Notes: a model not told the origin generated them from the sequence alone. A stretch of DNA of 64,000 nucleotides from Myxococcota bacterium (GCA_965223705.1 OZ245015.1:2496001-2560000); one strand, 5' to 3'. Shown: positions 4,808-43,314, counted from the first letter of the stretch. Program-made: numbers and translations.

Positions 4808-4826
4808 CTCGAGAATATCCTGGATT

Positions 4827-4866
4827 GCATGACGTTTGTCATGCTATTAATATGACAAACGTCATG
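4827..4866. promoter_or_regulatory. Paired palindromic operators (ATGAC-N4-GTCAT x2) in the TetR/GST divergent intergenic region
   Basis: gcATGACgtttGTCATgc at 4827-4844 and ATGACaaacGTCAT at 4852-4865; the two cores are exact reverse complements of each other. Confidence 0.7.
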
Positions 4867-4893
4867 TTAAAACGACACAAAGGAGTGGCCGCC

Positions 4894-5658: not shown

Positions 5659-5692
5659 GGACCACGATCGACTTCCTCACCCAGGAGGCGGC

Positions 5693-8019: not shown

Positions 8020-8060
8020 AGCGGCATTGTAATTCGGAAACAGCCAGCGCGAGGATCTCC

Positions 8061-8840
8061 ATGACACGACTGACGAAACTCTCTCGCTCGATCGCGGGTC
8101 GGCGCGCCCTCATTACCGGCGCCGGAAGCGGCATGGGACGCGCCACCGCGCAGCTCTTCGCGGACGAAGGCGCGCGCCTGGTGTTGGCAGACCGCGATGC
8201 TCCCGGTCTCGACGAAACCTGTGCGAGCATTCGCGATGCAGGAGGTGAAGCCCACGCCTGTGTTTGCGACCTCGGAGAGGCAGGAACGCCGGAACAGCTG
8301 GTCGCCACCGCGGCCAAGACCCTCGGCGGACTCGACATCCTGGTGAACAACGCCGGGATCGCGCCAGCCGCTCCGATCGACGACCCGAACTACGCCGAAG
8401 CTTGGACCCAGACCCTGACCGTCAACCTCGAAGTGCTGGCGCACTGCATCCGGCACGCCCTGCCCCACCTCGAACAGAGCGACGCTGCGCGGATCGTCAA
8501 CATCGCCTCGACCGAAGGCTTGGGCGCCACCGCGCAGATCAGCCCGTACACCGCGAGCAAGCACGGCGTGATCGGACTGACGCGAGCGTTGGCGGTCGAA
8601 CTCGGAGCACGCGGCGTCAACGTGAACTGCATCTGCCCCGGACCGATCCACACCGGCTTGACGAAGGTGATCGACGACGCCGCGAAGACGAAATTCGCGC
8701 GCCGGCGCGTGCCGCTCCGGCGCTACGGAGATCCCGAGGAAGTCGCCCACGGAACGCTCAGCTTGGTGCTTCCCGCCGCGTCGTATATCAATGGCGCGAT
8801 ACTCGTTGTCGACGGAGGCATGACCGCGCAGAACACCTAG
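8061..8840 (+). CDS. Short-chain dehydrogenase/reductase
   Basis: TGAGSGMG, NNAG and YTASK motifs. Confidence 0.9.
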   Translation: MTRLTKLSRSIAGRRALITGAGSGMGRATAQLFADEGARLVLADRDAPGLDETCASIRDAGGEAHACVCDLGEAGTPEQLVATAAKTLGGLDILVNNAGIAPAAPIDDPNYAEAWTQTLTVNLEVLAHCIRHALPHLEQSDAARIVNIASTEGLGATAQISPYTASKHGVIGLTRALAVELGARGVNVNCICPGPIHTGLTKVIDDAAKTKFARRRVPLRRYGDPEEVAHGTLSLVLPAASYINGAILVVDGGMTAQNT

Positions 8841-8929
8841 GCGCCCCACACAGTTCGACCGGCCTTCGCTAGAATCCCGCGGTTCCCCTCCATCGAGTGC
8901 AGCCTCAGCCCAAAGCCGTCATTGAATCC

Positions 8930-23804: not shown

Positions 23805-23946
23805 ACGTGCCCGAATCCCTTCTGCGGAGAAAACACCCCGCGTAGAGGTGAGTGGCTCTTTCTGCCCTCGGGGTGACGCGAAACCTGTCGAAGTTCTTTG
23901 ACACATCGCGCCGGTGCCGGAGACTCACCCACGCACAAGGGGACTC

Positions 23947-25494
23947 ATGGCACGCCGGAAGAAAGTTACCCGGGCACGGGCGCCGCAAGACGCGCCTCGC
24001 TCCGCAGGACCGCCCAACTGGTCATGGTGGCTGCTCGCCGCCGTGGCGATTCTTCCGTTCCTGGCTTCCCTCGGCGCGGACTTCACCATCGACGATCATC
24101 CCACGGTCGAAGGGAACCCACTCTTAAGTGAGATCGGTTGGCGGGTGTTCGCGGATGCGCGCTTCGTGCGCACCTTCAGCATCATGCTCGATCGCGCGCT
24201 CTTCGGGATGAACCCCGTCGGCTATCACGTGACGAACTTGCTGCTCCACGCGGGTGCAAGCCTGCTGAGCTACGCGCTCCTGCTCCGCTTCGCGAAGGAT
24301 TTTCGCCTGGCACTCGTCGGGGCCGGGCTCTTTGCGATCCATCCAGTCCACGTCGAAGTGATCACGAACATCGCAAACCGCAAAGAGACCCTGTGCTTCT
24401 TGTTCTCTCTGGCGAGCTTTGCCTGCTACGTGCGTACCCTCGAGCGATTCGAAGGTTGGGGACGTTGGCGGGGCCTCGCCGCGACGGGCTTCCTCGGGAT
24501 TCTCGCGCTCGGCGCGAAGCAAGTCGCGATCGTGCTGCCGCTCGTGGCACTCACTTACGAAGCGCTCTTCGTTCCGCGAGAGCGACGCCTGCTCCTCCAT
24601 TCTCCGTGGGTTCTCGCGGCGTGTTTCATCGTGGGTGCTGGCGGGCTTGTCGCGTACATCGAGTGGGAGATGGGTTGGTCGACCCTGCTCGACTACCGGA
24701 CCGTGCAGGGATTTCTCGGTGACCCGACACCGTTGCAGATCGGCCTGTCTTCCCCGTGGTTTTTTTGGCGCTACATCGAGCTGCTTCTGGTTCCCGTGAG
24801 GCTTTGCGCCGACCACGTCGCAGACGCGACGCGGATCGCGCAGAGTGCACTGCTGCCGGTCGCCTGGTTGGGCTTGGCCGGCGTCGTCGCCGTTGCCGTC
24901 CTGTTGCGCAAACGCGCGCCGATCACCGCGTTCGGGCTTTGGTGGATCGTGCTGCATTTGCTGCCGACCGTGAACCTCATTCCCTCAGCCTACGCGCTGG
25001 CGGATCGCTACTTGTACATCCCGTCGCTGGGTCTCTGCCTGCTTCTCGTGGGCGCGGCGCAGGAATTCCCGGTACCCCGACATTGGGTCGCGAATCGCGG
25101 GCGTTGGGTGGGGCTCGCGGCCGGCACCGTCGCGGCCGTCTTCCTGGTGCAAGCGGTTTCCTACAACCGCGTTTGGCTGACGGAAGAAACCCTGTGGCGA
25201 GACACCCTGCAGTGTGAACCCCACTCCTTTAGAGCGCACTTGAACGTCGGTTCCTACGACTACCTGGCGAAGAGCTATCGTTCGGCTCGAGAGCACTTTC
25301 AACGCGCCGTGTCGCTCAAGCCGGAGGACGCGCGCGCCCACTTCAACCTCGGCAATGCGGAGCGACACCTCGGCCGCTTCGGAAATGCCGCAACTTCCTA
25401 CGCTAAAGCCGCGGAACTAGGGTTGAAACCGGCGGAAGAGCAGCTCCGGCGGCTGCGTTCCCAGGGGGGATCGGGCGACGAAAAGTCGTTCTAG
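23947..25494 (+). CDS. TMTC-like GT-C membrane glycosyltransferase with C-terminal TPRs
   Basis: FTIDD loop, GYHVTNLLLH, FAIHPVHVEV, ADRYLYIPS and W..E..LW motifs; TPR tail. Confidence 0.8.
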   Translation: MARRKKVTRARAPQDAPRSAGPPNWSWWLLAAVAILPFLASLGADFTIDDHPTVEGNPLLSEIGWRVFADARFVRTFSIMLDRALFGMNPVGYHVTNLLLHAGASLLSYALLLRFAKDFRLALVGAGLFAIHPVHVEVITNIANRKETLCFLFSLASFACYVRTLERFEGWGRWRGLAATGFLGILALGAKQVAIVLPLVALTYEALFVPRERRLLLHSPWVLAACFIVGAGGLVAYIEWEMGWSTLLDYRTVQGFLGDPTPLQIGLSSPWFFWRYIELLLVPVRLCADHVADATRIAQSALLPVAWLGLAGVVAVAVLLRKRAPITAFGLWWIVLHLLPTVNLIPSAYALADRYLYIPSLGLCLLLVGAAQEFPVPRHWVANRGRWVGLAAGTVAAVFLVQAVSYNRVWLTEETLWRDTLQCEPHSFRAHLNVGSYDYLAKSYRSAREHFQRAVSLKPEDARAHFNLGNAERHLGRFGNAATSYAKAAELGLKPAEEQLRRLRSQGGSGDEKSF

Positions 25495-25644: not shown

Positions 25645-26430
25645 ATGCTCCGCTCACGCACGACACTCTTGCTTCTGTTGCTCGCGCTCTTCGCGTTCGC
25701 CAGTACTTCAGCCAGCGCGCTCCAGATCCGCATCAACAGCGGAATGATCGCGCACGACGATGGGGGCCTCGGCTTCATCGCGGGCTCGATCACTCCGAGC
25801 ACGTTCATCGACTTCGAACTCGACTGCGCCTCCGCCTCGGAGTGCACCGTCCAAGACTTCTGGTTCGGAAACAGCGTGACCCAGAATCACTTCGCGATGC
25901 TCGGCAGCTTTGACTTCAACCGAGAGCTCCGGATGCAAGACGCTGCCGGCAACCTCCTCGACGCTTCGTATCCGCACAGCAACGGCACCTCCAACATCGT
26001 GCTGACTCTCGGTGCGGGCGGCCTCGTCACGAGTGACACGCAGTACGTCGAATCCTTTGGGGTTTCGCCGTTCGGCCAAGACCCCACCGGCGAGGATTTC
26101 AGCTTCGCGCTCTCCACCGACGGCAGCTTGTTCCCGCGCGGTGGGCCGTCGAACAACGTCGGCTGCGCGGACGCCGATGTGGGCAGCGGCTTCTTCGATC
26201 TCGTCGCCGCCGGCGTGACACTGCCTTCGGGGTCGGCGATGACGGACGGGTTCAACCTCGGAAGCACCGGCACCTTGGTGGCCGTCGGTTGTTACTTCCG
26301 GCAGGAAGACGCGTACGAAGTCCCCCTGCTGATGACGCTGAACGTGGAAATCGTTCCCGAGCCGTCCACGGCGCTGCTGCTGGCTGGCGGGCTCGGCGGA
26401 ATCGCATGGTTCGGACGGCGCCGGCGCTAG
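25645..26430 (+). CDS. PEP-CTERM sorting-domain protein
   Basis: Signal peptide (ASA); C-terminal VPEPSTALLLAGGLGGIAWFGRRRR; AAGGA RBS. Confidence 0.85.
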   Translation: MLRSRTTLLLLLLALFAFASTSASALQIRINSGMIAHDDGGLGFIAGSITPSTFIDFELDCASASECTVQDFWFGNSVTQNHFAMLGSFDFNRELRMQDAAGNLLDASYPHSNGTSNIVLTLGAGGLVTSDTQYVESFGVSPFGQDPTGEDFSFALSTDGSLFPRGGPSNNVGCADADVGSGFFDLVAAGVTLPSGSAMTDGFNLGSTGTLVAVGCYFRQEDAYEVPLLMTLNVEIVPEPSTALLLAGGLGGIAWFGRRRR

Positions 26431-26511
26431 AACGCTTTTCGCCTCTGGCCTTCTAAAAACTGAATATTGGACTGGATCACTTTCTCGGAGGGGGTTATTG
26501 GGGATAAGGTG

Positions 26512-27765
26512 ATGCTGAGAACGATCCAGGCCCTGCTGACCGCCGGTGTATTGGCCACCGCAGCTCAAGCAGGCGCCGAAGCGGCCGCGAAGGCCGCAAC
26601 GACCGAGGCCACGGATGTGGCCTGCCCGACCTTCACGCAAGCTTCAAAGGGGCTCCCGGTTCGCGGAGAATGGCGAACCTACCCCGCCGTCGCGGACTTC
26701 AACGGAGACGGGCGACTCGACCTCGCCGCGACGCCGCGCAAGGACAAAGGGCCGCGCGCGTGGCTCAGCGTAAAAGACGGCTGGAAAGAGTCCTCCCTCG
26801 GGCTCGCACTGCCCGGCTACTCCTGCGGCGTCGGCTTGGCTTCGGGCGATCTGAACGGCGACGGTCATCTCGACCTGGGGGTCGCCGATCACTGCCACGG
26901 CCTGTTCGTCTATTTCGGAAACGGGAAGGGATCGTGGCGCCCCGGGCCGCAAGCACAGGTGAACCGCGGTGATCCGGGCCTCGAAGACTTGGCCCTCGGC
27001 GACATCGATGCGGACGGCGATCTCGATATCGCGACCGTCGGTGCCATCGAAGGCGGCGTGACCGTCTACCTGAACGACGGTACCGGTCGGTTCGCGAAAT
27101 CCGACACGGGCTTGCCCATCCGAGGCACGGCCAAGAACGTCGAGCTCGCCGACGTGAACGAAGACGGCTTGCTCGATATCGCCGCAAGCTATTCCGGACT
27201 CGGCAGCCAACCGACCGCCGATCCCATCACATTCAACGTGCTCTGGCTCGCTTCGAAGAACGACGAAGGCGAGCTGCGCTACACGCGGCATCGCGCCGGA
27301 CTTCCCGTCGATACACAGACCCGACGCGTCATCTTCGGCGACGTCGACCTCGACGGTCATCAAGACCTCATCGCGACCTTCGTTCCCCACAGCGAAGGGA
27401 GTCCCTTGATTCGCGTCTTCCGCGGTGACGGCGCGGGTGGCTTCGTCGAGTCGAGCGAAGGCCTGCCGCAATTCTCATCGGAAGCGCTCGTGCAACTGAG
27501 CGGCATCCGCCTGGCGGACTTGAACCGCGATGGAACTCAGGACCTCGTCGCGGTTCAAACCAATGACGACCGCTTCCACACGTGGATGGGATCGGCGTCC
27601 GGAGCGTGGCGGGCTTGCGGCTCAGCCGAGGTCGGGATCACGAAAGAAGGATCCCGCTCGATCGGCCTCGAAGTCGCCGACACCAATGCCGACGGCAAAC
27701 CCGACCTCGTGATGGCCTTCGGGCGCGTCGGCGAAGGCGGGCTCGAAGTGTGGCTCGCGAACTAG
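26512..27765 (+). CDS. Secreted FG-GAP/VCBS repeat protein (probable beta-propeller)
   Basis: Seven D-x-[ND]-x-DG-x-x-D-[LI] repeats; signal peptide. Confidence 0.85.
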   Translation: MLRTIQALLTAGVLATAAQAGAEAAAKAATTEATDVACPTFTQASKGLPVRGEWRTYPAVADFNGDGRLDLAATPRKDKGPRAWLSVKDGWKESSLGLALPGYSCGVGLASGDLNGDGHLDLGVADHCHGLFVYFGNGKGSWRPGPQAQVNRGDPGLEDLALGDIDADGDLDIATVGAIEGGVTVYLNDGTGRFAKSDTGLPIRGTAKNVELADVNEDGLLDIAASYSGLGSQPTADPITFNVLWLASKNDEGELRYTRHRAGLPVDTQTRRVIFGDVDLDGHQDLIATFVPHSEGSPLIRVFRGDGAGGFVESSEGLPQFSSEALVQLSGIRLADLNRDGTQDLVAVQTNDDRFHTWMGSASGAWRACGSAEVGITKEGSRSIGLEVADTNADGKPDLVMAFGRVGEGGLEVWLAN

Positions 27766-27850
27766 CTCTCCGCAGAACGGGCAAACGCCCGGCGGCTTAA
27801 AAAAACTTGACGGACCCACTGGGTGGAGGTGGGCTCGAAGGGAGACCCCT

Positions 27851-29524
27851 ATGAAATTTCGCATCCTCGCCCTCGTTCTCGTGTTGGTCGCCGGCTCGGT
27901 GTCGGCCTGGTGGTTCGGCGGCAAGCCGCTCCCCTCGGCCATCGCCGGGCCCCTGCCCCTCGTGATCGCTCCCGAGATTCTCGAGTTCGAGAACATCCGG
28001 GTCGGCACGAGTGACAAGCAACTCGTATCGCTGACGAACATCGGGGAAGAGATCCTCGAGCTGACCGAGCTCGAACTCGAGGGGCCCTTCTCCGCTTTCC
28101 TCGGCCCGAAGAGTGTCTTCCTCGACTCCGGGGAGACGCAGTTTCTGGCAATCACGTTTACACCGACGGAAGAAGGCCAAACCGAAGGGAGCATCGCCAT
28201 TCGCGACGCGCAGAGCCGGGAAGCTTCATCCGCGCTCACGGGGACCTCACCGACACCCCACGACGTCGCCTTGTGGCCTCGCTCTATCCGCTTCGGCGAT
28301 GTGTCCGTGGGCAATGACGCGACGGCCCTCCTCACCATCGAGAACCGCGGGTCCTTGCCGTTCACGCTTCCGGAGCTCGCTCTCGCCGACGGCTTTCATC
28401 TCGAGCCCCTGACGGCCCCGCTCGCGCCCGGTGCGCGCGAGACGGTGAAGGTACGCTTCTCGCCGCTTTCCGAAGGTCGCCACGACGGAGAACTCCTCCT
28501 GCGCGACGACGTCTTCGACCGCGACCTCGCCGTTGTCAGCTTGGCCGGTGACGGCATCGACTTCGAACTCGACGTCGCGTTCGGCGCTGCGCCACAACAC
28601 CTGGACTTCGGAACCGTCCCGCTGGGCTCCGCACGCAAAGGCTGGCTCACGTTGTCGAACAGTGGACGCGATCCGGTGACGCTCACGTCCGTGGCGGTAC
28701 CCGAAGGTTTTTCGGCGCCCGAGGGCAGCCGCGTCATCGGCGCCGGGTCAAAGCTCAGCTACCCGATCACGTTCCGGCCTACGAAGGGCGGCGACCACGC
28801 GGGCCTGGTGCAGTTCGCGACGAACACCCCGGGCGGAGATCCGGTGGGAGTCGCGCTCGCGGCGATCGGCGGCGCACTCGAAGGTTCGGGCGCCGAACCG
28901 CAGACGGCCGACTCCCGCTCAGACGCACCCACGCGCAAGAACCGCTTCGGCTTCTTCGGCACGAACGGCGAAGTGAGCTCCACCGCGGACGTGGCGAGCC
29001 TCGAGCCCGAGTTCCTCGAGCCGGTGGGTGAGGTTCCGGAAGAGTTCGGCGAAGCCGGCGACGGGCCCGTCCTCGGCCAGGGGACCTTCGCCGAGGGCAG
29101 CGACCTCGAGTTCATCGGTCTGCATGCCGACGTCGCGGACGTGCACGTCGGTGAGATTCTCGTGGACCGGCAGTCCGGCCGCGTGGAGCTCAACGACCTG
29201 CAACTCCCGAAAGTGCTCGGGCCCTTCCACGAGTGGTGGCAGGTCGTACCTACGGATGCCTTCGGGACCGTGAATGAACTGGGGGATATCGACGTCACGA
29301 TCCCCATCCAGATCGTCGACGCGGTCGGGATGGTCGTCGATTCGGAAATCCGGCTGACCACAGGGGTCTCCGAGCTGCGCGACGGCGACGAAATCCTTCA
29401 GATGTCGGGCCAGCCGCTCGATGCAAGTGGAGCGGCAAAACTCGTTTCAGTAACCATGGTCCCCTCGGGTCATCTCAAAGGGGGCGTCATGAGGGTGAAC
29501 TTCAATGTACTCGTTAACCAGTAA
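27851..29524 (+). CDS. Membrane-anchored or secreted protein with three ASH/choice-of-anchor-D-like Ig domains
   Basis: Three repeats of P..[LI].F..[IV].[VL]G....L.[LI].N.G...[IV].F.P; N-terminal hydrophobic segment; unassigned C-terminal domain. Confidence 0.7.
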   Translation: MKFRILALVLVLVAGSVSAWWFGGKPLPSAIAGPLPLVIAPEILEFENIRVGTSDKQLVSLTNIGEEILELTELELEGPFSAFLGPKSVFLDSGETQFLAITFTPTEEGQTEGSIAIRDAQSREASSALTGTSPTPHDVALWPRSIRFGDVSVGNDATALLTIENRGSLPFTLPELALADGFHLEPLTAPLAPGARETVKVRFSPLSEGRHDGELLLRDDVFDRDLAVVSLAGDGIDFELDVAFGAAPQHLDFGTVPLGSARKGWLTLSNSGRDPVTLTSVAVPEGFSAPEGSRVIGAGSKLSYPITFRPTKGGDHAGLVQFATNTPGGDPVGVALAAIGGALEGSGAEPQTADSRSDAPTRKNRFGFFGTNGEVSSTADVASLEPEFLEPVGEVPEEFGEAGDGPVLGQGTFAEGSDLEFIGLHADVADVHVGEILVDRQSGRVELNDLQLPKVLGPFHEWWQVVPTDAFGTVNELGDIDVTIPIQIVDAVGMVVDSEIRLTTGVSELRDGDEILQMSGQPLDASGAAKLVSVTMVPSGHLKGGVMRVNFNVLVNQ

Positions 29525-30029
29525 GCTCCTGTTCTTTCTCACACTTTGCGCTTTCTCGACGCTGCCCGCGGGCGCAGCGGAAGTGGACGCGGCGGTGCTC
29601 AAGGGCGTCGACGTCTCGCTCAAAGATCGCGCTACGGCCTACTGGACGGCGCGTGCGAGCCGCTCGGGAGACGTCATGCGCTTCTATGCCCCGGTCGAGA
29701 AAGGTGGCCCCAAGCGCTCTCGGGACGTCTCCGAGTTCGGGAATGTCGGATTCAAGGCGTTCGAGATCAAGAAAGCTCGGGAGAACGGAGAGTTCGGGTT
29801 GGTGACGATCGAAGTGCAGACGGACTTGCGCGGGCTCCCGCTACCCCAGAAGTTCCGGACGCAGCTGGCGACCCAGACCATCGACGAAGAGTGGTTGCGC
29901 ATCGACGACGTCTGGTACAAGAAGCCGATCCCCCGCGGGTTCTCTTCGAAGAAAGCCGCCGAAGCCGCAGCTCCGGCGGAGACTCAGGCCGACGCGGCCG
30001 CGGAGGCCCCGACGAGCCAAGCCGACTGA
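29505..30029 (+). CDS. Hypothetical secreted protein
   Basis: Signal peptide; RATAYWTAR...EEWLRIDDVWY; overlaps the upstream gene. Confidence 0.65.
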   Translation: MYSLTSKLLFFLTLCAFSTLPAGAAEVDAAVLKGVDVSLKDRATAYWTARASRSGDVMRFYAPVEKGGPKRSRDVSEFGNVGFKAFEIKKARENGEFGLVTIEVQTDLRGLPLPQKFRTQLATQTIDEEWLRIDDVWYKKPIPRGFSSKKAAEAAAPAETQADAAAEAPTSQAD

Positions 30030-30258: not shown

Positions 30259-31380
30259 ATGCTGAAACTTACACGGCTGGCCGCGATCGTATTCGCGACC
30301 TTCCTCTTTAGCGGCACCAGCCACGCCGCCCTCGATCTGATGGATCACTCAGCGACGGGAAGCATTGTCTCGACGCCCTGGCTCGCGACAGGCGAGCGGG
30401 TCACCGTCGTGACGCTCACCAACGCCCTCGCGGACCCGATCACCGTTCACTGGACGGCGCTCAACAACAAGTGGCAGGGCATCGACTTCGACTGCCCGCT
30501 TTCGCCGATGGAGACGACCTACTTCGTCTTTGAGTCGAACAACGCGGGTGGCGCGAAGATCACGTACGAGTGCAGCGATATCTCCCAGAGCAATCTGAAT
30601 ATCGTGCGCACGCAGTTCATTCCGGGTGCCGACACGGAGCGCGAAGGCTTCATCGTGTTCCACGCCACCCTCGGTGCGGGCGTTCCGCCGAACCCGGCGA
30701 ACATCGTTGCCCTGATCGCTGACTTCACCGTCATCGACTTCAACCAGGGCTACGCATTCTCGGCGAACGGCTGGCACTTCCAGGTGCAGGGCAACACCCA
30801 GAACAACACGCTGCAGGTCCCGACGGTCCTCGCCTCGAGCTTCATCGCTCCCGACGACGACATCACGGCGGAGCTTCTGCTCTACACGCTCCACGGGCGC
30901 ATCGGCTGGAACTCCCCGGTCAGCATCGGCGGTCTGGCCTACGACGACGACGAGCAGCCGCTCTCGAACAGCCACAAGTACGACTGCTTCACGATCGTTT
31001 CGCTCGAGAGCATCTTCGGGCTCAGCATCTTGCGCCAGAACGGTCCCGGCGGTTTCCCGTACTTCGTGGGTCACGTGAGCCTGTTCGCACTGGTGGATCC
31101 GCTCGCGTACCTCCCGCCCTTCGGTTTCGGTCCGTTCCGGTCCGCGTCGGTGGGGTACATCATCCAGACGATCGGTGCGCTTGCGCCGGATGACGGAGCC
31201 GACTTGAACGACGGCCAGAACCTGAACGGCACGGCGGGCGGCGCGATCAACTTCGCGGACGCCTTGGCGCCTGGCCAGAAGGCCGCATGGGCTCGCAAGC
31301 TTCTGAAGACGACCATCCAGACGCCGATTTGTAACGCCCTCGACGTCACTCAGGATCCGCCGGCCGGCTGCGGCACGTGA
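30259..31380 (+). CDS. Secreted array protein, copy 1 (class A)
   Basis: Signal peptide MLKLTR...SHA; shares SPMETTYFVFE, SFIAPDDD and NGPGGFPYFVGHVSLFAL with the other copies. Confidence 0.9.
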   Translation: MLKLTRLAAIVFATFLFSGTSHAALDLMDHSATGSIVSTPWLATGERVTVVTLTNALADPITVHWTALNNKWQGIDFDCPLSPMETTYFVFESNNAGGAKITYECSDISQSNLNIVRTQFIPGADTEREGFIVFHATLGAGVPPNPANIVALIADFTVIDFNQGYAFSANGWHFQVQGNTQNNTLQVPTVLASSFIAPDDDITAELLLYTLHGRIGWNSPVSIGGLAYDDDEQPLSNSHKYDCFTIVSLESIFGLSILRQNGPGGFPYFVGHVSLFALVDPLAYLPPFGFGPFRSASVGYIIQTIGALAPDDGADLNDGQNLNGTAGGAINFADALAPGQKAAWARKLLKTTIQTPICNALDVTQDPPAGCGT

Positions 31381-31521
31381 TCCACGCGTAGAAGCGGTGC
31401 CTTGACGTAAAGACAAGGCACGACGCGCACAGGAGGCCCGAGAGCGAGTCAGCATGCTCGCTCTCGGGCCCACCCTTTGATCCTCACGGCCCGCTTCAGG
31501 GCAAGCAACGAGACGACAAGC

Positions 31522-32589
31522 ATGAGACGGCTGGCATTCGCGACGTGTTTCGCAGTCCTCCTCTTTGCCCTTCCGGGCTCCGCCGCCCTCAACCTGTCGA
31601 GTCCGACGGCCGTCGGCGGCGTCGCATCAGCGCCCTGGTTCAGTGAGAACGGCCAGGTCACGATCATCACGCTCACGAACGGCAGCTCGGCGTGGACGAC
31701 CGTTCACGTCATCCTCTCGGACGCGAACTGGAAAGCGCTCGATTACGACTGCCGCCTCTCGCCAATGGAAACGACCTACTTCGTGTTCGAGGCGGCCTCG
31801 ACCGGCTCGAAAGTGACGAACGAGTGCAGCTCTGATTTCCCGGCCTGGAATCAACAGCTGAACATCGTCACGACCCGCTACATCCCCGGAGATCGGCGGG
31901 GCTTTGCGGTCTTCCAGCAGAACGTGAACGCCGACGCGCAGAACGTTCTCATCGCGGATTTCACCGTCATCGATTTCAACCGCGGGCTCAGCTATTCGGC
32001 GAATGCGTGGCACGTCCAGGCACTCGCGGGAAGCGCCGACCACAATCTCAGCTTCGACAACGTCGAGTACGCCCAGGTCCCGCGGAACCTCGCGATGAGC
32101 TTCATCGCGCCCGACGACGACGTCACGGCCGAGCTCATCCTGTACACACTGAACGGGCGCCTGCTCGAGGCGCCTCCCGTGCTCCTCGGTGCGCTCGCGT
32201 ACGACGACGATGAGAACGCCTTATCCAACACCCACGAATACACGTGCTTTACGGTCGTATCGCTCGAAACCATCTTCGGGCTCGGGATCCGGCGGGAAAA
32301 CGGGCCCGGCGGCTTCCCTTACTTCGTCGGGCACGTCTCCTTGTTTGCCCTCGTTCACGCGGGTGGCTACACGGGCGTCGGCAACCCGCCCGGCGCGATT
32401 TCCCACTCGTTCGGCTGGCTGCTGCAGACGATCGCGAACGGTGGCGACCTGAACGACAACGCGCCGTTGGGGCCGCCCGAACCGAACTTCGGAAACTCGA
32501 TGCCCGGGGCCGCTGCGTGGGCTCGCCCCGCGCTGCGAACGGTCGAGACCGTGCCGGCGCAGTTTGACGCGGATCCCCGCGGTCCCTAG
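31522..32589 (+). CDS. Secreted array protein, copy 2 (class B)
   Basis: Signal peptide MRRLAF...; same invariant blocks; ends DADPRGP. Confidence 0.9.
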   Translation: MRRLAFATCFAVLLFALPGSAALNLSSPTAVGGVASAPWFSENGQVTIITLTNGSSAWTTVHVILSDANWKALDYDCRLSPMETTYFVFEAASTGSKVTNECSSDFPAWNQQLNIVTTRYIPGDRRGFAVFQQNVNADAQNVLIADFTVIDFNRGLSYSANAWHVQALAGSADHNLSFDNVEYAQVPRNLAMSFIAPDDDVTAELILYTLNGRLLEAPPVLLGALAYDDDENALSNTHEYTCFTVVSLETIFGLGIRRENGPGGFPYFVGHVSLFALVHAGGYTGVGNPPGAISHSFGWLLQTIANGGDLNDNAPLGPPEPNFGNSMPGAAAWARPALRTVETVPAQFDADPRGP

Positions 32590-32725
32590 ACGCCAGCGCC
32601 CCCCCCAAACGACTTGCCACCGATTTGCCGCTCCCCTGCGGATAGAGCGCACAAACCCGACGTACGCCGTCACTTCCCCGCGTTCCCGGAGACTCACTCT
32701 CACTGGCTACTCGTGAAGGGGTCCC

Positions 32726-33802
32726 ATGAAGCATCGGCTATTCGTCGGTTGTCTATTCGCTCTACTGGTAATGGGGTGGAGCGACGCATCATTCAGCGCG
32801 GTCACGGCGAGCGATCACAGCGCTGTGGGAGCCGTGGTCACGAACCCGTGGCTCGTCGATGGCGACCGACTCACGCTCGCGACGCTGACGAACGGCAGTA
32901 GTTTCTGGATCACGGTTCACGTGACCGTGTTCGATGCCGCTTGGCAGCCGATCAACTTCGATTGCAAGCTGTCCCCGATGGAAACGACCTACTTCGTGTT
33001 CGAAGCGCACAGTGTCGGATCGAAGCTCACTTCGGAATGTAGCGACCCGATTTCCGGCAACTTGAACATCGTGCAGACCCGCTTCGTCCCGGGAGAGCGC
33101 GACGGGTTTGTCGTGTTCCACCACACCTTGGTCCCCGGCGCCACGACGCCGCAGAACGTCCTCATCGGCGATTTCGTCGTGATCGATTTCGACCAGGGAT
33201 ACGCGTTCTCGGCGAACGCCTGGCATGTGCAGGCGCTGGCGGGAAGCACCGACCAGAATCTCATCTTCGACGGGACCGAGTTTGCGCAACTACCAAAGGT
33301 CCTGGCCGGAAGCTTCATCGCGCCCGACGACGACATCACCGCAGATCTCATCCTCTATACGCTGAACGGAGCGTTGGGCTGGCCCGCGGAAGTGAAGTTG
33401 GGCGGCATCGTCTACGACGACGATGAGCAGGCGCTCTCGAACGTTCACGAATACGACTGCTTCACCGTGGTCTCGCTGATCGATGTGTTCGGCCTGAGCG
33501 TCGACCGGCGGAACGGTCCCGGCGGCTTTCCCTACTTCGTGGGGCACGTCAGCCTCTTCGCTCTCTTCGCCCCGGGCGGCTACGCCGGTGCGACCGCGCC
33601 TCCTGGCGCCGTTGCGAGCTCGCTCGGTTGGATCGTTCAGACCATGGCCGACATCGGCGACCTGAACGACAACCAGCCCCTCGGTCATCAGCCGAACTTC
33701 GGCAACGTTTCCTCCGGCCAGTCCGCCTGGGCCCGGCAGTTATTGACGACCCAGGATTCCATCCCGAACCGCCTCGACGCCGATCCTCGAGGCGGCGCCT
33801 AG
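32726..33802 (+). CDS. Secreted array protein, copy 3 (class B)
   Basis: Signal peptide; same invariant blocks; ends DADPRGGA. Confidence 0.9.
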   Translation: MKHRLFVGCLFALLVMGWSDASFSAVTASDHSAVGAVVTNPWLVDGDRLTLATLTNGSSFWITVHVTVFDAAWQPINFDCKLSPMETTYFVFEAHSVGSKLTSECSDPISGNLNIVQTRFVPGERDGFVVFHHTLVPGATTPQNVLIGDFVVIDFDQGYAFSANAWHVQALAGSTDQNLIFDGTEFAQLPKVLAGSFIAPDDDITADLILYTLNGALGWPAEVKLGGIVYDDDEQALSNVHEYDCFTVVSLIDVFGLSVDRRNGPGGFPYFVGHVSLFALFAPGGYAGATAPPGAVASSLGWIVQTMADIGDLNDNQPLGHQPNFGNVSSGQSAWARQLLTTQDSIPNRLDADPRGGA

Positions 33803-33819
33803 ACACCACAAGCTCTTCG

Positions 33820-33894
33820 CGTCTCAAGACGAACGAGCTGATTCCGAACTACCACTCCCTCGACGTGACGACGGACGAGATTTGCGTGTTCTGA
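33820..33894 (+). pseudogene. Orphan 3' end of a probable additional class-A array gene
   Basis: Translates RLKTNELIPNYHSLDVTTDEICVF*, resembling LLKT...NALDVT...C of class-A tails; followed by the class-A terminator. Confidence 0.55.
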
Positions 33895-33926
33895 GTTCTC
33901 GGCAGACACTCGCGTGTGTCGATCCC

Positions 33927-33964
33927 GGCGCCTGGAAGGTTCTCCTTCCGGGCGCCTTCTTGTT
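33927..33964 (+). terminator. Array-family terminator hairpin
   Basis: ggcgcctggaagg-ttct-ccttccgggcgcc followed by ttcttgtt. Confidence 0.7.
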
Positions 33965-34120
33965 GCGCATGGCTTCACCGCAATTGCGCATCCCTTGCGC
34001 ACCGACCGTTTTTTCTGACACCAAGTGACGTTTTTCGCCACTACCTCCTAGACGCCTGTCGCCGCGGTGGTGACCGGCTTGAACGGGTGATCCCGTTCGC
34101 GCGTATCAAGGAGTTTTCTC

Positions 34121-35206
34121 ATGCTGAAGCTGAAGCACATCTTGGTCGCCGCCGTTGCGGCGATCTTCCTGTCGAGCCCGGGTCTCGCCGCGCTCCCCCT
34201 GATGGACCACGCGGCCACCGGTAGCCTCGTGTCCACGCCGTGGCTCGCCACGGGCAAGCGCGTCACCGTCACGACGCTGACCAACGCCCTCGCGGACCCG
34301 ATCACGGTCCACTTCACGGCGCTCAACAACAAGTGGCAGGGAATCGACTTCGATTGCCCCCTCTCCCCCATGGAGACCACCTACTTCGTGTTCGAGTCCA
34401 ACGCTGCGGGTGGCGCCAAGGTCACGTTCGAGTGCAGTGACATCACCCAGAGCAACCTGAACATCGTCCGCACCCTCTTCATCCCGGGTGCTGCCGATGA
34501 GCGCGAAGGCTTCATCGTCTTCCACACGACGGCCGGCGTGGGCTTCCCCACTCCGAACCCGGCGAGCGTCCAGTCCCTCATCGCTGACTTCACCGTCATC
34601 GACTTCGACCAGGGCTATGCGTTCTCCGCCAACGGCTGGCACTTCCAGGTGCAGGGCACGAACCAGAACAACTCGCTCACCGTCCCGGCGACCCTCGCGT
34701 CGAGCTTCATCGCTCCCGACGACGACATCACGGCCGAGCTCCTCCTCTACACCCTCCACGGTGCGATTGGTTGGAACTCCCCGGTCAAGTTCGGTGGTCT
34801 CGCCTACGATGATGACGAGCAGCCCCTCTCGAACACCCACGAGTACGACTGCTTCACGGTCGTGTCCCTCGAGGACATCTTCGGCCTGAGCATCGATCGT
34901 CGGAACGGTCCGGGCGGCTTCCCGTACTTCGTCGGCCACGTGAGCCTCTTCGCGTTGGTTCACCCCTTGGCCGCGATCCCGGGCAACTCCTTCGCTCCGT
35001 ACCAGTCGGCTTCGGTGGGCTACATGATCCAGACCATCGCGAGCGGTGGCGACCTGAACGACAACGTTCAGCTCGGCCCGATCCAGCCGAACTTCGGTGA
35101 GACGATGCCGGCCAACGCGGCTTGGGCGCGCAAGCTCCTCAAGACGATCCAGCCGGCTCAGCCCCAGTGCAACGCGCTCGACGTGACGATCGCTGGTGGC
35201 TGCTAG
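34121..35206 (+). CDS. Secreted array protein, copy 4 (class A)
   Basis: AAGGAG RBS, signal peptide MLKLKH...GLA, invariant blocks. Confidence 0.92.
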   Translation: MLKLKHILVAAVAAIFLSSPGLAALPLMDHAATGSLVSTPWLATGKRVTVTTLTNALADPITVHFTALNNKWQGIDFDCPLSPMETTYFVFESNAAGGAKVTFECSDITQSNLNIVRTLFIPGAADEREGFIVFHTTAGVGFPTPNPASVQSLIADFTVIDFDQGYAFSANGWHFQVQGTNQNNSLTVPATLASSFIAPDDDITAELLLYTLHGAIGWNSPVKFGGLAYDDDEQPLSNTHEYDCFTVVSLEDIFGLSIDRRNGPGGFPYFVGHVSLFALVHPLAAIPGNSFAPYQSASVGYMIQTIASGGDLNDNVQLGPIQPNFGETMPANAAWARKLLKTIQPAQPQCNALDVTIAGGC

Positions 35207-35247
35207 CCTCCTGTCTTAAGCGGGCATCGGCCTGCGACATGACACCC

Positions 35248-35285
35248 GGCGCCCGGAAGGTTTTCCTTCCGGGCGCCTTCTTTTT
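35248..35285 (+). terminator. Array-family terminator
   Basis: ggcgcccggaagg-tttt-ccttccgggcgcc followed by ttcttttt. Confidence 0.85.
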
Positions 35286-35455
35286 ACGCCGGGTCTACTA
35301 CGACCGTTTGCACCACAGTTGCGCATCCCTTGCGCACCGACCGTTTTTTCTGACACCAAGTGACGTTTTTCGCCACTACCTCCTAGACGCCTGTCGCCGC
35401 GGTGGTGACCGGCTTGAACGGGTGATCCCGTTCGCGCGTATCAAGGAGTTTTCTC

Positions 35456-36544
35456 ATGCTGAAGCTGAAGCACATCTTGGTCGCCGCCGTTGCGGCGATC
35501 TTCCTGTCGAGCCCGGGTCTCGCCGCGCTCCCCCTGATGGACCACGCGGCCACCGGTAGCCTCGTGTCCACGCCGTGGCTCGCCACGGGCAAGCGCGTCA
35601 CCGTCACGACGCTGACCAACGCCCTCGCGGACCCGATCACGGTCCACTTCACGGCGCTCAACAACAAGTGGCAGGGAATCGACTTCGATTGCCCCCTCTC
35701 CCCCATGGAGACCACCTACTTCGTGTTCGAGTCCAACGCTGCGGGTGGCGCCAAGGTCACGTTCGAGTGCAGTGACATCACCCAGAGCAACCTGAACATC
35801 GTCCGCACCCTCTTCATCCCGGGTGCTGCCGATGAGCGCGAAGGCTTCATCGTCTTCCACACGACGGCCGGCGTGGGCTTCCCCACTCCGAACCCGGCGA
35901 GCGTCCAGTCCCTCATCGCTGACTTCACCGTCATCGACTTCGACCAGGGCTATGCGTTCTCCGCCAACGGCTGGCACTTCCAGGTGCAGGGAACGAACCA
36001 GAACAACTTCCTCCCGGTCCCGGCGACCCTCGCGTCGAGCTTCATCGCTCCCGACGACGACATCACGGCCGAGCTCCTCCTCTACACGCTCAATGGGCGC
36101 ATTGGTTGGAACTCCCCGGTCAAGTTCGGTGGTCTCGCCTACGATGATGACGAGCAGCCCCTCTCGAACACCCACGAGTACGACTGCTTCACGGTCGTGT
36201 CCCTCGAGGACATCTTCGGCCTGAGCATCGATCGTCGGAACGGTCCGGGCGGCTTCCCGTACTTCGTCGGCCACGTGAGCCTCTTCGCCCTGATTTCGCC
36301 CTTGGCCGTGGTCAACGGCGTTACGTTCGGCCCGTGGCAGTCGGCTTCGGTGGGCTACATGATCCAGACCATCGCGAGCGGTGGCGACCTGAACGACAAC
36401 GTTCAGCTCGGCCCGATCCAGCCGAACTTCGGTGAGACGATGCCGGCCAACGCGGCTTGGGCGCGCAAGCTCCTCAAGACGATCCAGCCGGCTCAGCCCC
36501 AGTGCAACGCGCTCGACGTGACGATCGTTGGTAACTGCAACTAG
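35456..36544 (+). CDS. Secreted array protein, copy 5 (class A)
   Basis: Near-identical to copy 4. Confidence 0.92.
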   Translation: MLKLKHILVAAVAAIFLSSPGLAALPLMDHAATGSLVSTPWLATGKRVTVTTLTNALADPITVHFTALNNKWQGIDFDCPLSPMETTYFVFESNAAGGAKVTFECSDITQSNLNIVRTLFIPGAADEREGFIVFHTTAGVGFPTPNPASVQSLIADFTVIDFDQGYAFSANGWHFQVQGTNQNNFLPVPATLASSFIAPDDDITAELLLYTLNGRIGWNSPVKFGGLAYDDDEQPLSNTHEYDCFTVVSLEDIFGLSIDRRNGPGGFPYFVGHVSLFALISPLAVVNGVTFGPWQSASVGYMIQTIASGGDLNDNVQLGPIQPNFGETMPANAAWARKLLKTIQPAQPQCNALDVTIVGNCN

Positions 36545-36585
36545 CCCCATGTCCTGCGCAGGCACCGGCCTGTGATGCGACACCC

Positions 36586-36625
36586 GGCGCCCGGAAGGTT
36601 TTCCTTCCGGGCGCCTTCTTTTTTT
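36586..36625 (+). terminator. Array-family terminator
   Basis: Same hairpin as after copy 4, with T tract. Confidence 0.85.
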
Positions 36626-36691
36626 GTCACTTCCAGGCGATTTCAGCCACTTCCTTGATGGACCTGCCCGACGAGCAGGAGGAGTGTTCCC

Positions 36692-37780
36692 ATGCTGAAG
36701 TTGAAATCGTTCTTGCTGGTTGCTGTGGCTTCCTTGCTCATCGCGAGCCCCGGCCTTGCCGCGCTCAACCTGATGGACCACGCGGCCACCGGCAGCATCG
36801 TCTCGACGCCGTGGTTGGCCGAAGGTCATCGAACCACCGTCACGACCCTGACGAATGCCCTTGCGCAGACCGTCACCGTCCACGTGACCGCGCTCGACAG
36901 CCAGTGGCAGCCCCTCGACTTCGACTGCCAGCTCTCCCCCATGGAGACCACCTACTTCGTGTTCGAGACCAACGGCACGAACGGCGCCAAGATCACGTCC
37001 GAGTGCAGCGACGTCTCGCAGAGCAATCTCAACATCGTGCAGACCCGCTTCATTCCGGGGCAGCAGAATGGCTTTGTCGTGTTCCACACGACGGCCGGCG
37101 CGGGCGTTCCGCCGAATCCCACGGACAACGGCGTGTCGCTCATCGCGGACTTCACGGTCATCGACTTCGACCAGGGCTATGCCTTCTCCGCCAACGGCTG
37201 GCATTTCCAGACCCAGGGTGCGACCCAAAACAACACGCTCCAGATCCCGCAGGTCCTCGCGTCGAGCTTCATCGCCCCGGATGACGACATCACCGCGGAG
37301 CTCCTCCTCTACACGCTTCATGGGCGTGCGGGATGGAACTCCCCGGTCAAGCTCGGCGGGCTCGCTTACGACGACGACGAGCAGCCCCTCTCGAACGTCC
37401 ATGAGTACGACTGCTTCACGATCGTTGCGCTCGAAGACATCTTCGGCCTGAGCATCGATCGCCGAAACGGCCCGGGCGGCTTCCCGTACTTCGTCGGCCA
37501 CGTGAGCCTCTTCGCGCTCATCCATCCTCTGGCCTACGACCCGACCACCGGTTCGTTCGGTCCGTTCTTGTCCGCTTCGGTGGGATACATCGTCCAGACC
37601 ATCGCGAGCGGCGGCGACCTGAACGACAACGTCCGGCTCGGCCCGATCCAGCCGAACTTCGGCGACAGCATGCCCGCCATGGGTGCTTGGGCCCGAAAGC
37701 TCCTGAAGTCGCAGGACCAGACCCCGGTCTGCAACGCGCTCGACGTCACCCAGGATCCGCCCGTTACTTGCGGCACCTGA
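36692..37780 (+). CDS. Secreted array protein, copy 6 (class A)
   Basis: AGGAGGAG RBS, signal peptide, invariant blocks; ends CNALDVTQDPPVTCGT. Confidence 0.92.
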   Translation: MLKLKSFLLVAVASLLIASPGLAALNLMDHAATGSIVSTPWLAEGHRTTVTTLTNALAQTVTVHVTALDSQWQPLDFDCQLSPMETTYFVFETNGTNGAKITSECSDVSQSNLNIVQTRFIPGQQNGFVVFHTTAGAGVPPNPTDNGVSLIADFTVIDFDQGYAFSANGWHFQTQGATQNNTLQIPQVLASSFIAPDDDITAELLLYTLHGRAGWNSPVKLGGLAYDDDEQPLSNVHEYDCFTIVALEDIFGLSIDRRNGPGGFPYFVGHVSLFALIHPLAYDPTTGSFGPFLSASVGYIVQTIASGGDLNDNVRLGPIQPNFGDSMPAMGAWARKLLKSQDQTPVCNALDVTQDPPVTCGT

Positions 37781-37845: not shown

Positions 37846-39278
37846 CTTCCGCGGTCGACGTAGGTCACGACGAGAGCGACGAGGAGGTTCGCAAAGGCGC
37901 CGATCACACCGATGTGGAAGCCCTCGATGCGCTTGAAGCCCCCGAGCGCGGCCCCTACGGCGACCGTTGTCCCGACGACCAGCCCGCAAAGTGCGGCCCG
38001 GGCCGAGAAGCGCTTCCAATGAATGGCTACGAGGAATGCTGGCGCGCACTGGATCAGGATCTCCATCTTGAGCTCGATGAGCCGCCAGAGACTGAGCTTC
38101 GGCATCAGCGCAAAGCCCAGCGCGATGAGCATCACCAGCGCTGCGGCGCGCTTTCCGGTGCGGGTCGTCGCCGGATCGTGGCGGTCGCGACCGAGCAGGT
38201 CGCAGGCAATCACCGAGCCCAGTGAAAGAAGGACCGAGTCGGCCGTCGACATGATCGCCGCCAGAGCCCCGATGAAGACCGCGACGGCAAAGACGGCGTT
38301 GATGGAGCTCGTCGCCGCCCACTCGCTGAGAAGCCGCGGCATGACCGTATCGGCTTCGACCGTGCCCAGGCCCGCGAACCGAGGAATCGCCGCAATCCCG
38401 ATCAACATGACCACGAAGGTGGTGGTGAGCGGCATGAAGCCCATGAGCGCGAGCGCGCGCTTCAGCTCGCCGCCGCTTCGCGCGGCGAAAATGCGCTGAA
38501 TCGCCTGGGGGTACATCAGTCCGCCGAAGCCGAGAAGCACCACGGTGGAGATCCAGTTCCAGCGCTCGGGCCAATCCGGCACGGCGACGGCCTCGGGGCG
38601 CACTCGGGCGACCTCGCGGGCGAGTCCCGCGAGTCCCGCGCCGTCGATGGCAACCCAGTGCAGGAGGAGGCCCAAGCCCACCAGCATGAGAAGCCCCTGG
38701 GCAGTGTCCGTCCAGGCGACGGCGCGCATGCCGCCCAAGGTCTCGTACACGAGGATGAACGCGGCCAACCCGACGACCGCGACCCAGTAGGGCACGAGCC
38801 CCCCCGTCACTTCCCCGGTGACGTGCCCCATGGCGACGAGCTGCGCGAGAAGAAAGTTGCCCAGCGCGAGGATCATCAAGGCGGCAACCGCCACTTCGAG
38901 AGCGCGACCGAGCGGCTCCCCCGCGAACCGATGGCGCAAGAAATCCCCGGGTGTCACGAACCCTTCGCGCGTCGCGAGCGGCCGGAGCTTCGGAACGAGG
39001 ATCTGGAACGTCACCATGATCGACATCATCATGCCGGTCGAGATGATCCAGGCGTAGCCGCGCCGGTAGCCCTCGCCGGGATAACCGAGGAGTGAGTTGC
39101 CGCTGTACGTCGTGGCGTAGAGGGTCATCAGCAACACGAAGAAACCGAGGCCCCGGGACGCCAAGAAATGGTCGTCCGGCGAATGATCGCGACGCGCCCG
39201 GCGCGCGACTTCGGCGAGGCCGATGAGCGCGACGAGGTACACCGCAAGACACAGCGCGCCGAGGTCGCCGAAGCTCAT
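37824..39278 (-). CDS. Sodium:solute symporter family protein
   Basis: Polytopic membrane protein; YETLGGMRAVAWTD and AAIMSTADS motifs. Confidence 0.9.
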   Translation of the reverse strand: MSFGDLGALCLAVYLVALIGLAEVARRARRDHSPDDHFLASRGLGFFVLLMTLYATTYSGNSLLGYPGEGYRRGYAWIISTGMMMSIMVTFQILVPKLRPLATREGFVTPGDFLRHRFAGEPLGRALEVAVAALMILALGNFLLAQLVAMGHVTGEVTGGLVPYWVAVVGLAAFILVYETLGGMRAVAWTDTAQGLLMLVGLGLLLHWVAIDGAGLAGLAREVARVRPEAVAVPDWPERWNWISTVVLLGFGGLMYPQAIQRIFAARSGGELKRALALMGFMPLTTTFVVMLIGIAAIPRFAGLGTVEADTVMPRLLSEWAATSSINAVFAVAVFIGALAAIMSTADSVLLSLGSVIACDLLGRDRHDPATTRTGKRAAALVMLIALGFALMPKLSLWRLIELKMEILIQCAPAFLVAIHWKRFSARAALCGLVVGTTVAVGAALGGFKRIEGFHIGVIGAFANLLVALVVTYVDRGRQNARKA

Positions 39279-39347
39279 TCAGAGCGATCCGTCGCGAGCG
39301 CAGTGCTCATTCGGAGCGATCCGTCGCGAGCGCAGTGCTCATTCAGA
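39273..39347. repeat. 32-bp tandem repeat (two units plus 11 bp)
   Basis: gctcattc[a/g]gagcgatccgtcgcgagcgcagt at 39273 and 39305, then gctcattcaga. Confidence 0.9.
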
Positions 39348-42735: not shown

Positions 42736-43254
42736 GTGCTCCCCCGCAACTTGCGCGAGGCCGCATTTTTCCTGTTCGGGCTCTGGGCCGCGTTCGCACT
42801 CCTCGTCCCCTTGGTCGCTCCGAGTCACGCGAACGCCGCGGAGCCCTACCTCGAGGAGCTCGAGCGCGAGATCTTCACCGCGGTGAATCGGTTTCGCGAC
42901 GAGCGCAAGCTCATTCCCCTCGCACGCCGACCGGAGCTCGACGCGGTCGCACGGGCTCACTCGACCGACATGATCGCGCGCGGTTTCTTCGCACACGAAA
43001 ACCCCGAGGGCCACATCTGGGTCGACCGTCTGCGCATCGCGGGCGTCGACGGCTTCAGCCTCGCGGGAGAGAACGTCGGGCTGACGAGCCGCTCCGATCC
43101 CGTCCGGGAAATCGTCGGCGGCTGGGAGCGCTCGCCAGTGCACCTCGAGAATCTGAAAGCGCGCCCGTTCAACGCCACCGGCGTCGGCATCGCGCGGGCG
43201 CCCGACGGCACCCTCTACGTGACGCAGCTCTACCTGACGTTTCCGAAGGACTGA
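42736..43254 (+). CDS. CAP/SCP domain protein
   Basis: N..R, ARAHS.DM, FFAH, GENV, W..SP.H..N and GVGI motifs. Confidence 0.9.
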   Translation: MLPRNLREAAFFLFGLWAAFALLVPLVAPSHANAAEPYLEELEREIFTAVNRFRDERKLIPLARRPELDAVARAHSTDMIARGFFAHENPEGHIWVDRLRIAGVDGFSLAGENVGLTSRSDPVREIVGGWERSPVHLENLKARPFNATGVGIARAPDGTLYVTQLYLTFPKD

Positions 43255-43314
43255 CGCGGACTAGAAGCGCTCGGTGATGCGGCTGACGCGGACTAGAAGC
43301 GCGCGGTGATGCGG
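43251..43314. repeat. 32-bp tandem duplication between convergent genes
   Basis: ctgacgcggactagaagcgc[t/g]cggtgatgcgg x2. Confidence 0.88.

Follow-up and report, generated by a model that had tools for sequence, protein, structure and literature searches.

Tandem twin genes in a putative surface-protein array of a Myxococcota bacterium, probably homogenized by gene conversion around old islands of divergence

The window, a 64,000-nucleotide stretch of a Myxococcota genome (a metagenome-type assembly of 4.56 Mb in 2 contigs), contains an array of six tandem genes (30259-37780) coding for proteins of 355-373 amino acids with signal-peptide-like N-termini. A seventh copy lies elsewhere in the genome. 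Three genes on the same strand precede the array and form a four-gene module with these subunit genes; they code for an FG-GAP repeat protein, a protein with ASH/Ig-like domains and a small protein (Table 1).

Copies 4 and 5 repeat at an offset of 1335 (ungapped comparison) and differ at 35 of 1,220 aligned bases (33984-35203), every one of them inside four short patches, as a preliminary description of the locus had stated. The patches hold 5 (34657-34681), 7 (34753-34765), 20 (34954-35002) and 3 (35193-35199) differences and alternate with identical runs of 673 nt (33984-34656), 71 nt (34682-34752), 188 nt (34766-34953) and 190 nt (35003-35192). The longest run, put earlier at about 670 bp of leader and 5′ coding sequence, combines the 137-nt leader with 536 nt of coding sequence. 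When 35 mismatches were placed at random, none of 100,000 placements contained a run of 673 nt or more (mean longest run 139, maximum 409), which argues against differences evenly spread along the pair. Twenty of the 361 codons are changed, 15 non-synonymously and 5 synonymously, and copy 5 carries one additional C-terminal codon. The patch peptides quoted in the preliminary description are correct, and its statement that the 3′ untranslated regions are homologous yet diverged agrees with the 11 of 34 positions that differ before the terminator. The spacers that precede the two leaders are related by 7 mismatches in 19 positions and a 14-nt indel, and a third, slightly diverged copy of the terminator is found at 33924-33964. 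Over the whole mosaic, identical tracts and diverged blocks number five each.

Table 1. Features of the module, the array and the twin genes (positions in the window).
Feature	Position	Strand	Remarks
PEP-CTERM protein gene	25645..26430	+	upstream of module; PEP-CTERM match at same place in G009
FG-GAP repeat (beta-propeller-type) protein gene	26467..27765	+	module gene
Module gene, 557 aa	27851..29524	+	three ASH / choice-of-anchor D Ig-like domains
Module gene, 174 aa	29505..30029	+	NTF2/SnoaL/DUF4864-like from Atlas features only (0.88-0.89), a lead
Copy 1	30259..31380	+	373 aa
Copy 2	31522..32589	+	355 aa, divergent type
Copy 3	32726..33802	+	358 aa, divergent type
Leader, copy 4	33984..34120	+	137 nt, identical to copy-5 leader; 3′ of terminator
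Copy 4	34121..35206	+	361 aa; N-terminus resembling a signal peptide (by inspection); two predicted beta-sandwich domains
Patch 1	34657..34681 (copy 5: 35992-36016)	+	codons 179-187; inter-domain linker, pLDDT 69-78
Patch 2	34753..34765 (copy 5: 36088-36100)	+	codons 211-215; well-ordered loop, family-conserved motif
Patch 3	34954..35002 (copy 5: 36289-36337)	+	codons 278-294; long beta-hairpin of domain 2, distal (outer) half and turn
Patch 4	35193..35240 (copy 5: 36528-36578)	+	last codons, low-confidence tail, continuing into diverged 3′ UTR
Intrinsic-terminator-like element	35241..35285	+	45/45 identical to 36579-36623
Unique spacer, duplication junction	35286..35318	+	homologous to 33965-33983
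Leader, copy 5	35319..35455	+	identical to copy-4 leader
Copy 5	35456..36544	+	362 aa, 95.8% identical to copy 4
Copy 6	36692..37780	+	362 aa

Terminator-like sites lie 3′ of copies 3, 4, 5 and 6. Since the 137-nt leader is itself 3′ of a terminator, it probably holds a promoter, and since both twins come with a leader and a terminator of their own, each is probably a separate transcription unit with the same promoter. Searches of the leader gave no sigma-70 consensus match and no credible Rfam match (fold z -1.5), and its sequence was not found in the five other module-bearing genomes. Codon bias places the twins at ranks 5 and 6 of 4,079 ORFs by a first index and 1 and 3 of 2,321 by a second, in which the tuf genes rank 259 and 273; by a noisier reference of ribosomal proteins only, the twins rank 391 and 503 of 4,079 and tuf 186 and 587, the ORF sets being crude throughout.

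Read-derived (Logan) contigs from four runs (X1-X4), representing two samples of one study, of which X1-X3 are perhaps the genome's own source sample, support two genuine tandem copies rather than a two-allele chimera or differences erased by polishing. Shared twin segments have depths of 15.4 and 17 in X1, against 8.2-11 for single-copy pieces, and of 19.6-23 in X3, against 10.7-14.1, that is, about 1.6-1.8 times the flanks, with contig depth serving as a rough guide to copy number. The pieces listed cover the end of copy 4, the unique spacer before the second leader, found in X3 and X4 and hence in both samples, and the end of copy 5. Pieces lying entirely within the twin region show no other letters among those listed. 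Patch 1 occurs in its copy-4 form in X1 and in its copy-5 form in X2 and X3, each with no other letters, and both forms of patch 3 are found in X4, the second sample; the pieces listed do not include patch 2 in its copy-4 form. Since no listed piece spans both copies, the assignment of patches to copies comes solely from the 2-contig assembly.

The patches differ sharply in divergence from the sequence around them. Outside them, none of about 233 synonymous sites differs between copies 4 and 5, which bears out the earlier remark that even synonymous sites match there. Within the 35 patch codons the NG86 method gives pS 0.47 and pN 0.29, values inflated by the fact that the patches are delimited by their own differences, although the contrast with zero outside still holds; for copies 4 and 6 the same columns give pS 0.59 and pN 0.29. 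Because the patches are thus diverged to about the level of old paralogues while no synonymous difference is left outside, the identity of the twins is most likely a recent feature and the patches relics, old islands spared by conversion. A simple recent duplication, already rejected in the preliminary description, is excluded by the absence of differences at these synonymous sites beside 32%-diverged spacers and a patch pS near 0.45. The statement that changes are mostly non-synonymous stands when codons are counted (15 of 20) and fails per site, 11-14 of the 35 changes being synonymous over all mutational paths.

The same description had proposed that gene conversion homogenizes the scaffold while exposed loops diversify. 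Its first half is supported by the mosaic and by the grouping of the genes by organism described below; its second half finds no support in the data. GY94 estimates of omega, made on two sequences only, are 0.155 for all patches (p=0.001 against 1), 0.213 without edge codons and 0.288 for patch 3 alone (p=0.12, not significantly below 1), so that no value above 1 was obtained in the patches. Moreover, the loops formed by residues 124-153 and 314-353 vary across the family as much as the patches do, yet match between the twins, and patch 2 lies at a family-conserved motif, H213 and A215 being invariant across 10 close homologues. The 15 changed residues lie in columns of variability 0.42, against 0.26, a value reached by 12 of 337 circular shifts. 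No donor for the patches was found elsewhere in the genome, where the longest matches are 13-17 nt.

Two known diversity-generating systems were considered and rejected. In cassette antigenic variation of the pilE/pilS or vlsE type, silent partial donor cassettes feed one expression site; here both twins are whole and have the same leader, the genome holds only seven full copies, and there is no donor. Diversity-generating retroelements make adenine-specific substitutions and have a reverse transcriptase and a template repeat nearby; here A is involved, in either copy, in 14 of the 35 differences, and C/G is the commonest exchange, with 12.

A relative with seven ENA proteins, which we infer to form one array, allows a comparison at the protein level. 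Its sequence carries apparent frameshifts, so that single differences may be errors, and in the tree of 17 protein rows three frameshifted rows were reduced to their in-frame part. Copies 2, 3, 6 and 1 pair with P0011, P0013, P0010 and P0009, respectively (90-93% identity; supports of 100, 100, 86 and 80). The three copy-4-type proteins of the relative (P0004, P0006 and P0022) group by organism instead, (c4,c5) with support 100/99 and (P0006,(P0004,P0022)) with 89/90, and 16 alignment columns are fixed by organism in this type. Against conversion, independent recent amplification in each lineage would give the same tree. P0004 and P0022 are themselves twins, 98.4% identical, with differences at residues 93, 185 and 288 and at the C-terminus; three of these four sites fall inside patches 1, 3 and 4, within the 35 of 338 mature codons that the patches occupy, in what is one comparison on error-prone sequence. 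Neither set of the twins' patches matches the relative's proteins as a block. Near-identity of twins is not general in the subunit family, since the duplicated copy of G025 is about 93% identical with no identical run above 113 nt, and paralogue pairs of G054 are near 80% identical with no long identical tract.

The model of copy 4, built from 122 sequences (pLDDT 87.7, pTM 0.88), predicts two beta-sandwich domains. In the fold comparison, made on this model and on a second one (pLDDT 91.6), both superpose best on TM1070 (1NC7; Z 11.0, r.m.s.d. 2.7 over 106 aligned residues and Z 11.4, r.m.s.d. 2.1 over 107), followed by ASRT (2II7; Z 7.0 and 7.4, respectively). Although both domains match TM1070 structurally, no profile-level repeat was detected between them, and Foldseek, run against the PDB and viral models, matched the protein nowhere over its full length, with TM1070 no higher than rank 18. 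A sequence search of the PDB gave no match; Pfam and NCBIfam gave no family match for the subunits, only weak Cu-oxidase_3 matches below the cut-off. Parts of PMC2739507 describe the ASRAH superfamily, to which TM1070 and ASRT belong, with secreted dyads of the domain. The subunits share with it the TM1070-type sandwich in both domains and, in domain 1 only, the Asn at the end of strand 2 (N55 in 101 of 122 rows). The Trp at the start of strand 1 may have a counterpart in W41 (18 of 122 rows, with Tyr in 25), a candidate equivalent of TM1070 W7. Unlike ASRAH proteins, the subunits have no lipobox or amidase fusion, belong to none of the three described families and have no Pfam match to them, and carry added hairpins and cysteines. 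A complex prediction with three copies of copy 4 gave scores of 0.01, 0.78 and 0.02 and is counted neither way. An Atlas hint at Slr4 (0.76) scored too low for use.

A distant link to a known S-layer family is found at the sequence level. The subunit family profile matched P0199 (E 5.5e-5), a member of a large betaproteobacterial family (3,269 matches among 7,997 candidates). Comparison of the two families by hhalign aligned the whole N-domain at 96.8% (E 3e-10), against 0.1% for the reversed control, and 9 of 122 members match at E<=1e-3, against 0 of 122 reversed. The P0199 family in turn matches a 'cell surface protein' of Comamonas odontotermitis (E 4e-38), to which the direct match of the subunit family is weak (54%, E 1e-4). 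The gene of this protein lies behind a gsp cluster. In PMC10765051, in the parts available, C. odontotermitis is listed as an npdA holder (Table 2 of that paper) and a gsp-cluster neighbourhood of npdA is described; from this context and the species listing, we infer that the Comamonas protein is an NpdA orthologue. The N-domain of the subunits thus appears distantly homologous to the NpdA S-layer family, which that source surveys in Beta- and Gammaproteobacteria. Like NpdA-family proteins, the subunits are predicted to be secreted and contain no Pfam domain. They differ from NpdA, a 510-aa precursor, in having 338 mature residues and a C-terminal half for which no homology was detected against the NpdA-type family (1.4%). 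They also differ in their seven paralogues and in having FG-GAP, ASH/Ig and small-protein neighbours in place of a 12-gene gsp cluster. No gsp cluster lies next to the array, the nearest GspD/E/G-like cluster being about 190 kb off (C1:2,722,458-2,727,733). An S-layer-like coat is the likeliest role for the subunits, at somewhat better than even odds, with a lectin or fibre as its rival.

The module is rare and coherent in its distribution. Of 225 genomes of the class, 6 contain the subunit family, and the 174-aa, FG-GAP and ASH/Ig genes are each present in the same 6, as found by single-protein queries at thresholds of 1e-3, 1e-30 and 1e-15, respectively, among genomes many of which are incomplete. 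Gene order (FG-GAP, ASH, small gene, subunit) is preserved in G000, G009, G025 and G114, whereas in G054 and G066 contig ends divide it; the six genomes represent six genera and four families. In a sample of the phylum the subunit family was found in 1 of 401 genomes, the source genome itself. Pattern scans revealed no relative in genome_contigs or viral_contigs and three short loci in metagenome_contigs, and a scan for the FG-GAP gene gave 11 distant loci, none with a subunit, ASH or small-gene match. The literature search returned no paper on the four-gene module or on the twin-gene pattern, and where it turned up reports of S-layer recombination it yielded none that dealt with NpdA, with paralogues or with gene conversion.

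These observations are best explained if copies 4 and 5 are old tandem duplicates that have been repeatedly homogenized by gene conversion, the patches being unconverted islands, and if they encode the likely main subunit of an S-layer-like coat (probability roughly 0.6). The main-subunit gene would have been duplicated long ago, for dosage, and the pair may well have arisen by unequal crossover at the repeated terminator. Short non-reciprocal recombination events would then, very probably, have spread leader, scaffold and terminator sequence from copy to copy over several tracts. There is about an even chance that the islands persist through selection removing conversions that would make the subunits identical, as opposed to escape aided by mismatches that block strand exchange. 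The choice between selection and resistance to conversion is near even, selection being slightly favoured by the recurrence of the patches in the relative's twins. Both twins would be highly expressed for dosage and, as seems a little better supported than not, their products would polymerize on the cell surface with the help of the FG-GAP, ASH/Ig and small proteins, with copies 1, 2, 3 and 6 as conserved minor subunits. Pressure from phages or predators on the patches is plausible.

Among the alternatives, neutral concerted evolution is the most serious, though less probable than the reading just given. The islands would merely be unconverted and, once diverged, would resist strand exchange, without selection favouring difference. 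Such a process agrees with an omega below 1 in the islands, the homogenization of loops as variable as the patches, the synonymous changes that mark the patch edges and the restriction of conversion by divergence, described in a portion of PMC3924837. Patches 1 and 2, by contrast, are short (25 and 13 nt) and lie between converted tracts, 3 of the 4 difference sites of the relative's twins fall within the same patches, and the tuf pair of this genome has another pattern altogether, with 39 scattered differences and 2 amino-acid changes.

As to function, the subunits could tentatively be seen as a family of secreted sugar-binding adhesins or as fibre subunits, in which the patches tune ligand specificity. 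ASH domains, three of which are present in the module, have a link to PapD-like folds, and galectin-like folds appear lower in the structure match lists. Sugar binding has been proposed, not shown, for the ASRAH fold (PMC2739507, in the portion consulted). Against this role, the closest tested family to which the subunits can be linked by sequence is one of S-layer proteins, and strong codon bias and duplication for dosage suit a structural protein.

Import from outside is unlikely as the source of the mosaic. A recent exact duplication would have been followed by the acquisition of short tracts from a diverged allele of another strain or species, a scenario in keeping with the old, multi-substitution look of the islands and with the patchy distribution of the module (6/225), a pattern compatible with horizontal exchange; in C. 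difficile, S-layer alleles are reported to recombine (excerpts of 10.1101/2025.04.02.646754). It would nevertheless require at least five imports, untranslated region and spacer included, and, apart from the absence of a donor in the genome, neither twin's patches match those of the relative as a block.

Fast diversification of exposed loops in a recent duplicate, by positive selection under phage or predator pressure, is more doubtful still. The excess of non-synonymous codons, the position of the changed residues in family-variable columns and the location of patches 1, 3 and 4 in linker, hairpin tip and tail would agree with it. However, the 35 changes include at least 11 synonymous ones, omega lies at 0.16-0.29, patch 2 is located at a conserved motif, and no variant patch form was found among the pieces listed for four runs and two samples, in contigs that drop rare variants. 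Finally, an assembly artefact, in which two strain alleles of one locus were set in tandem or real differences were lost in polishing, would suit a metagenome-type assembly in which no listed read-derived piece spans both copies, but is very improbable given the depth of the shared segments, the presence of the junction spacer in both samples and the lack of other letters in the shared tracts of three runs that were assembled separately.

A broader reading, which builds on conversion between the twins and is put forward as speculation, would make the locus a new type of coat. An NpdA-related two-domain subunit would be served by an FG-GAP, ASH/Ig and NTF2-like assembly trio instead of an adjacent T2SS; four minor subunits would be conserved, and the slot for the main one would be amplifiable. 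Conversion would hold lattice scaffold and promoter identical so that subunits co-assemble, and selection would preserve two outward-facing versions, giving each cell a mixed coat.

The evolutionary process itself is already known, and the present case is an unusually clean one in an undescribed surface module. Since conversion would have removed all background differences, the islands would mark the residues at which two versions of a probable coat protein stay apart, and they offer a ready target for tests of recognition by phages or predators. More is gained from the module, whose four genes match in presence across 225 genomes, and from a subunit family that lacks a Pfam or NCBIfam model and can now be connected with the TM1070/ASRT fold and, at a distance, with the NpdA S-layer family. 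If the coat assignment is true, it suggests a fold for the NpdA N-domain, names candidate assembly factors and takes NpdA-like coats past the Beta- and Gammaproteobacteria covered in the available parts of PMC10765051.

Among known systems, the twins can be compared with other duplicates and clusters. Bacterial cases of interlocus gene conversion include tufA/tufB and flaA/flaB of Campylobacter. Outside bacteria, interlocus conversion with divergence peaks under selection is described for the genes of the red and green opsins (PMC3924837, in part). As in the opsin type, the tandem duplicates are closer to each other within the genome than to their orthologues and show local divergence peaks on a homogenized background. 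Unlike the opsin, tuf and fla cases, they code for an uncharacterized secreted protein of an uncultured bacterium, the leader and terminator are also converted, and homogenization is confined to a single slot of the six-gene array. The lpl cluster of Staphylococcus aureus, as far as described in a section of PMC2568036, likewise consists of tandem surface-protein paralogues that recombine at conserved blocks. There, recombination rearranges variable halves about a single central block, whereas the twins are identical over almost the entire gene and differ just in small islands.

The genes for the FG-GAP, ASH/Ig and 174-aa proteins (window 26467-30029) have exactly the distribution of the subunit family, which occurs in 6 of the 225 genomes of the class, and form a candidate assembly module. 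It is possible that the surface proteins are glycosylated by the PMT-like glycosyltransferase encoded near the module (see table). In G066, another module-bearing genome, a homologue of this enzyme lies immediately upstream of the FG-GAP gene (stretch L084).

Features in the window, elsewhere in the source genome (G000) and in other module-bearing genomes
Feature	Location	Strand	Remarks
PMT-like glycosyltransferase with TPR repeats	window 23914-25494		two genes upstream of module
32-nt tandem duplications (two)	window 39273-39336; 43251-43314		31/32 identical; unrelated; each at gene end
Seventh subunit-family member	G000 C1:1703718-1704809	(-)	isolated
Duplicated block	L058 (G025) 4279-6476 and 7917-10104		2.2 kb, 85.8%; small gene and subunit
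598-aa protein	L054 / L014 (G054 C46)		PEP-CTERM-protein-like N-terminal domain fused to complete subunit

The seventh family member of the source genome has copy 1 as its closest neighbour in the tree and shows weak codon bias. In the second copy of the G025 block, the small gene and the subunit are both apparently frameshifted, which appears to reflect either a real break or an assembly error. Two short metagenome contigs, L025 and L026, each carry parts of three tandem family members with ~40-48% identity to copy 4.

At the junction of copies 4 and 5 (window 35163-35348), the assembled pieces of sequencing run X3 have depths of 6.6-8.7, compared with ~11-12 in the flanks; the drop may come from noise, the pieces being short, or from a one-copy subpopulation.

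Elsewhere on the source contig (C1:165733-173481), a 1.3-kb element is present in three copies that are 97-98% identical. Judging by the translations, these elements are transposase-like and adjoin an integrase-like gene, and the region is possibly an integron.
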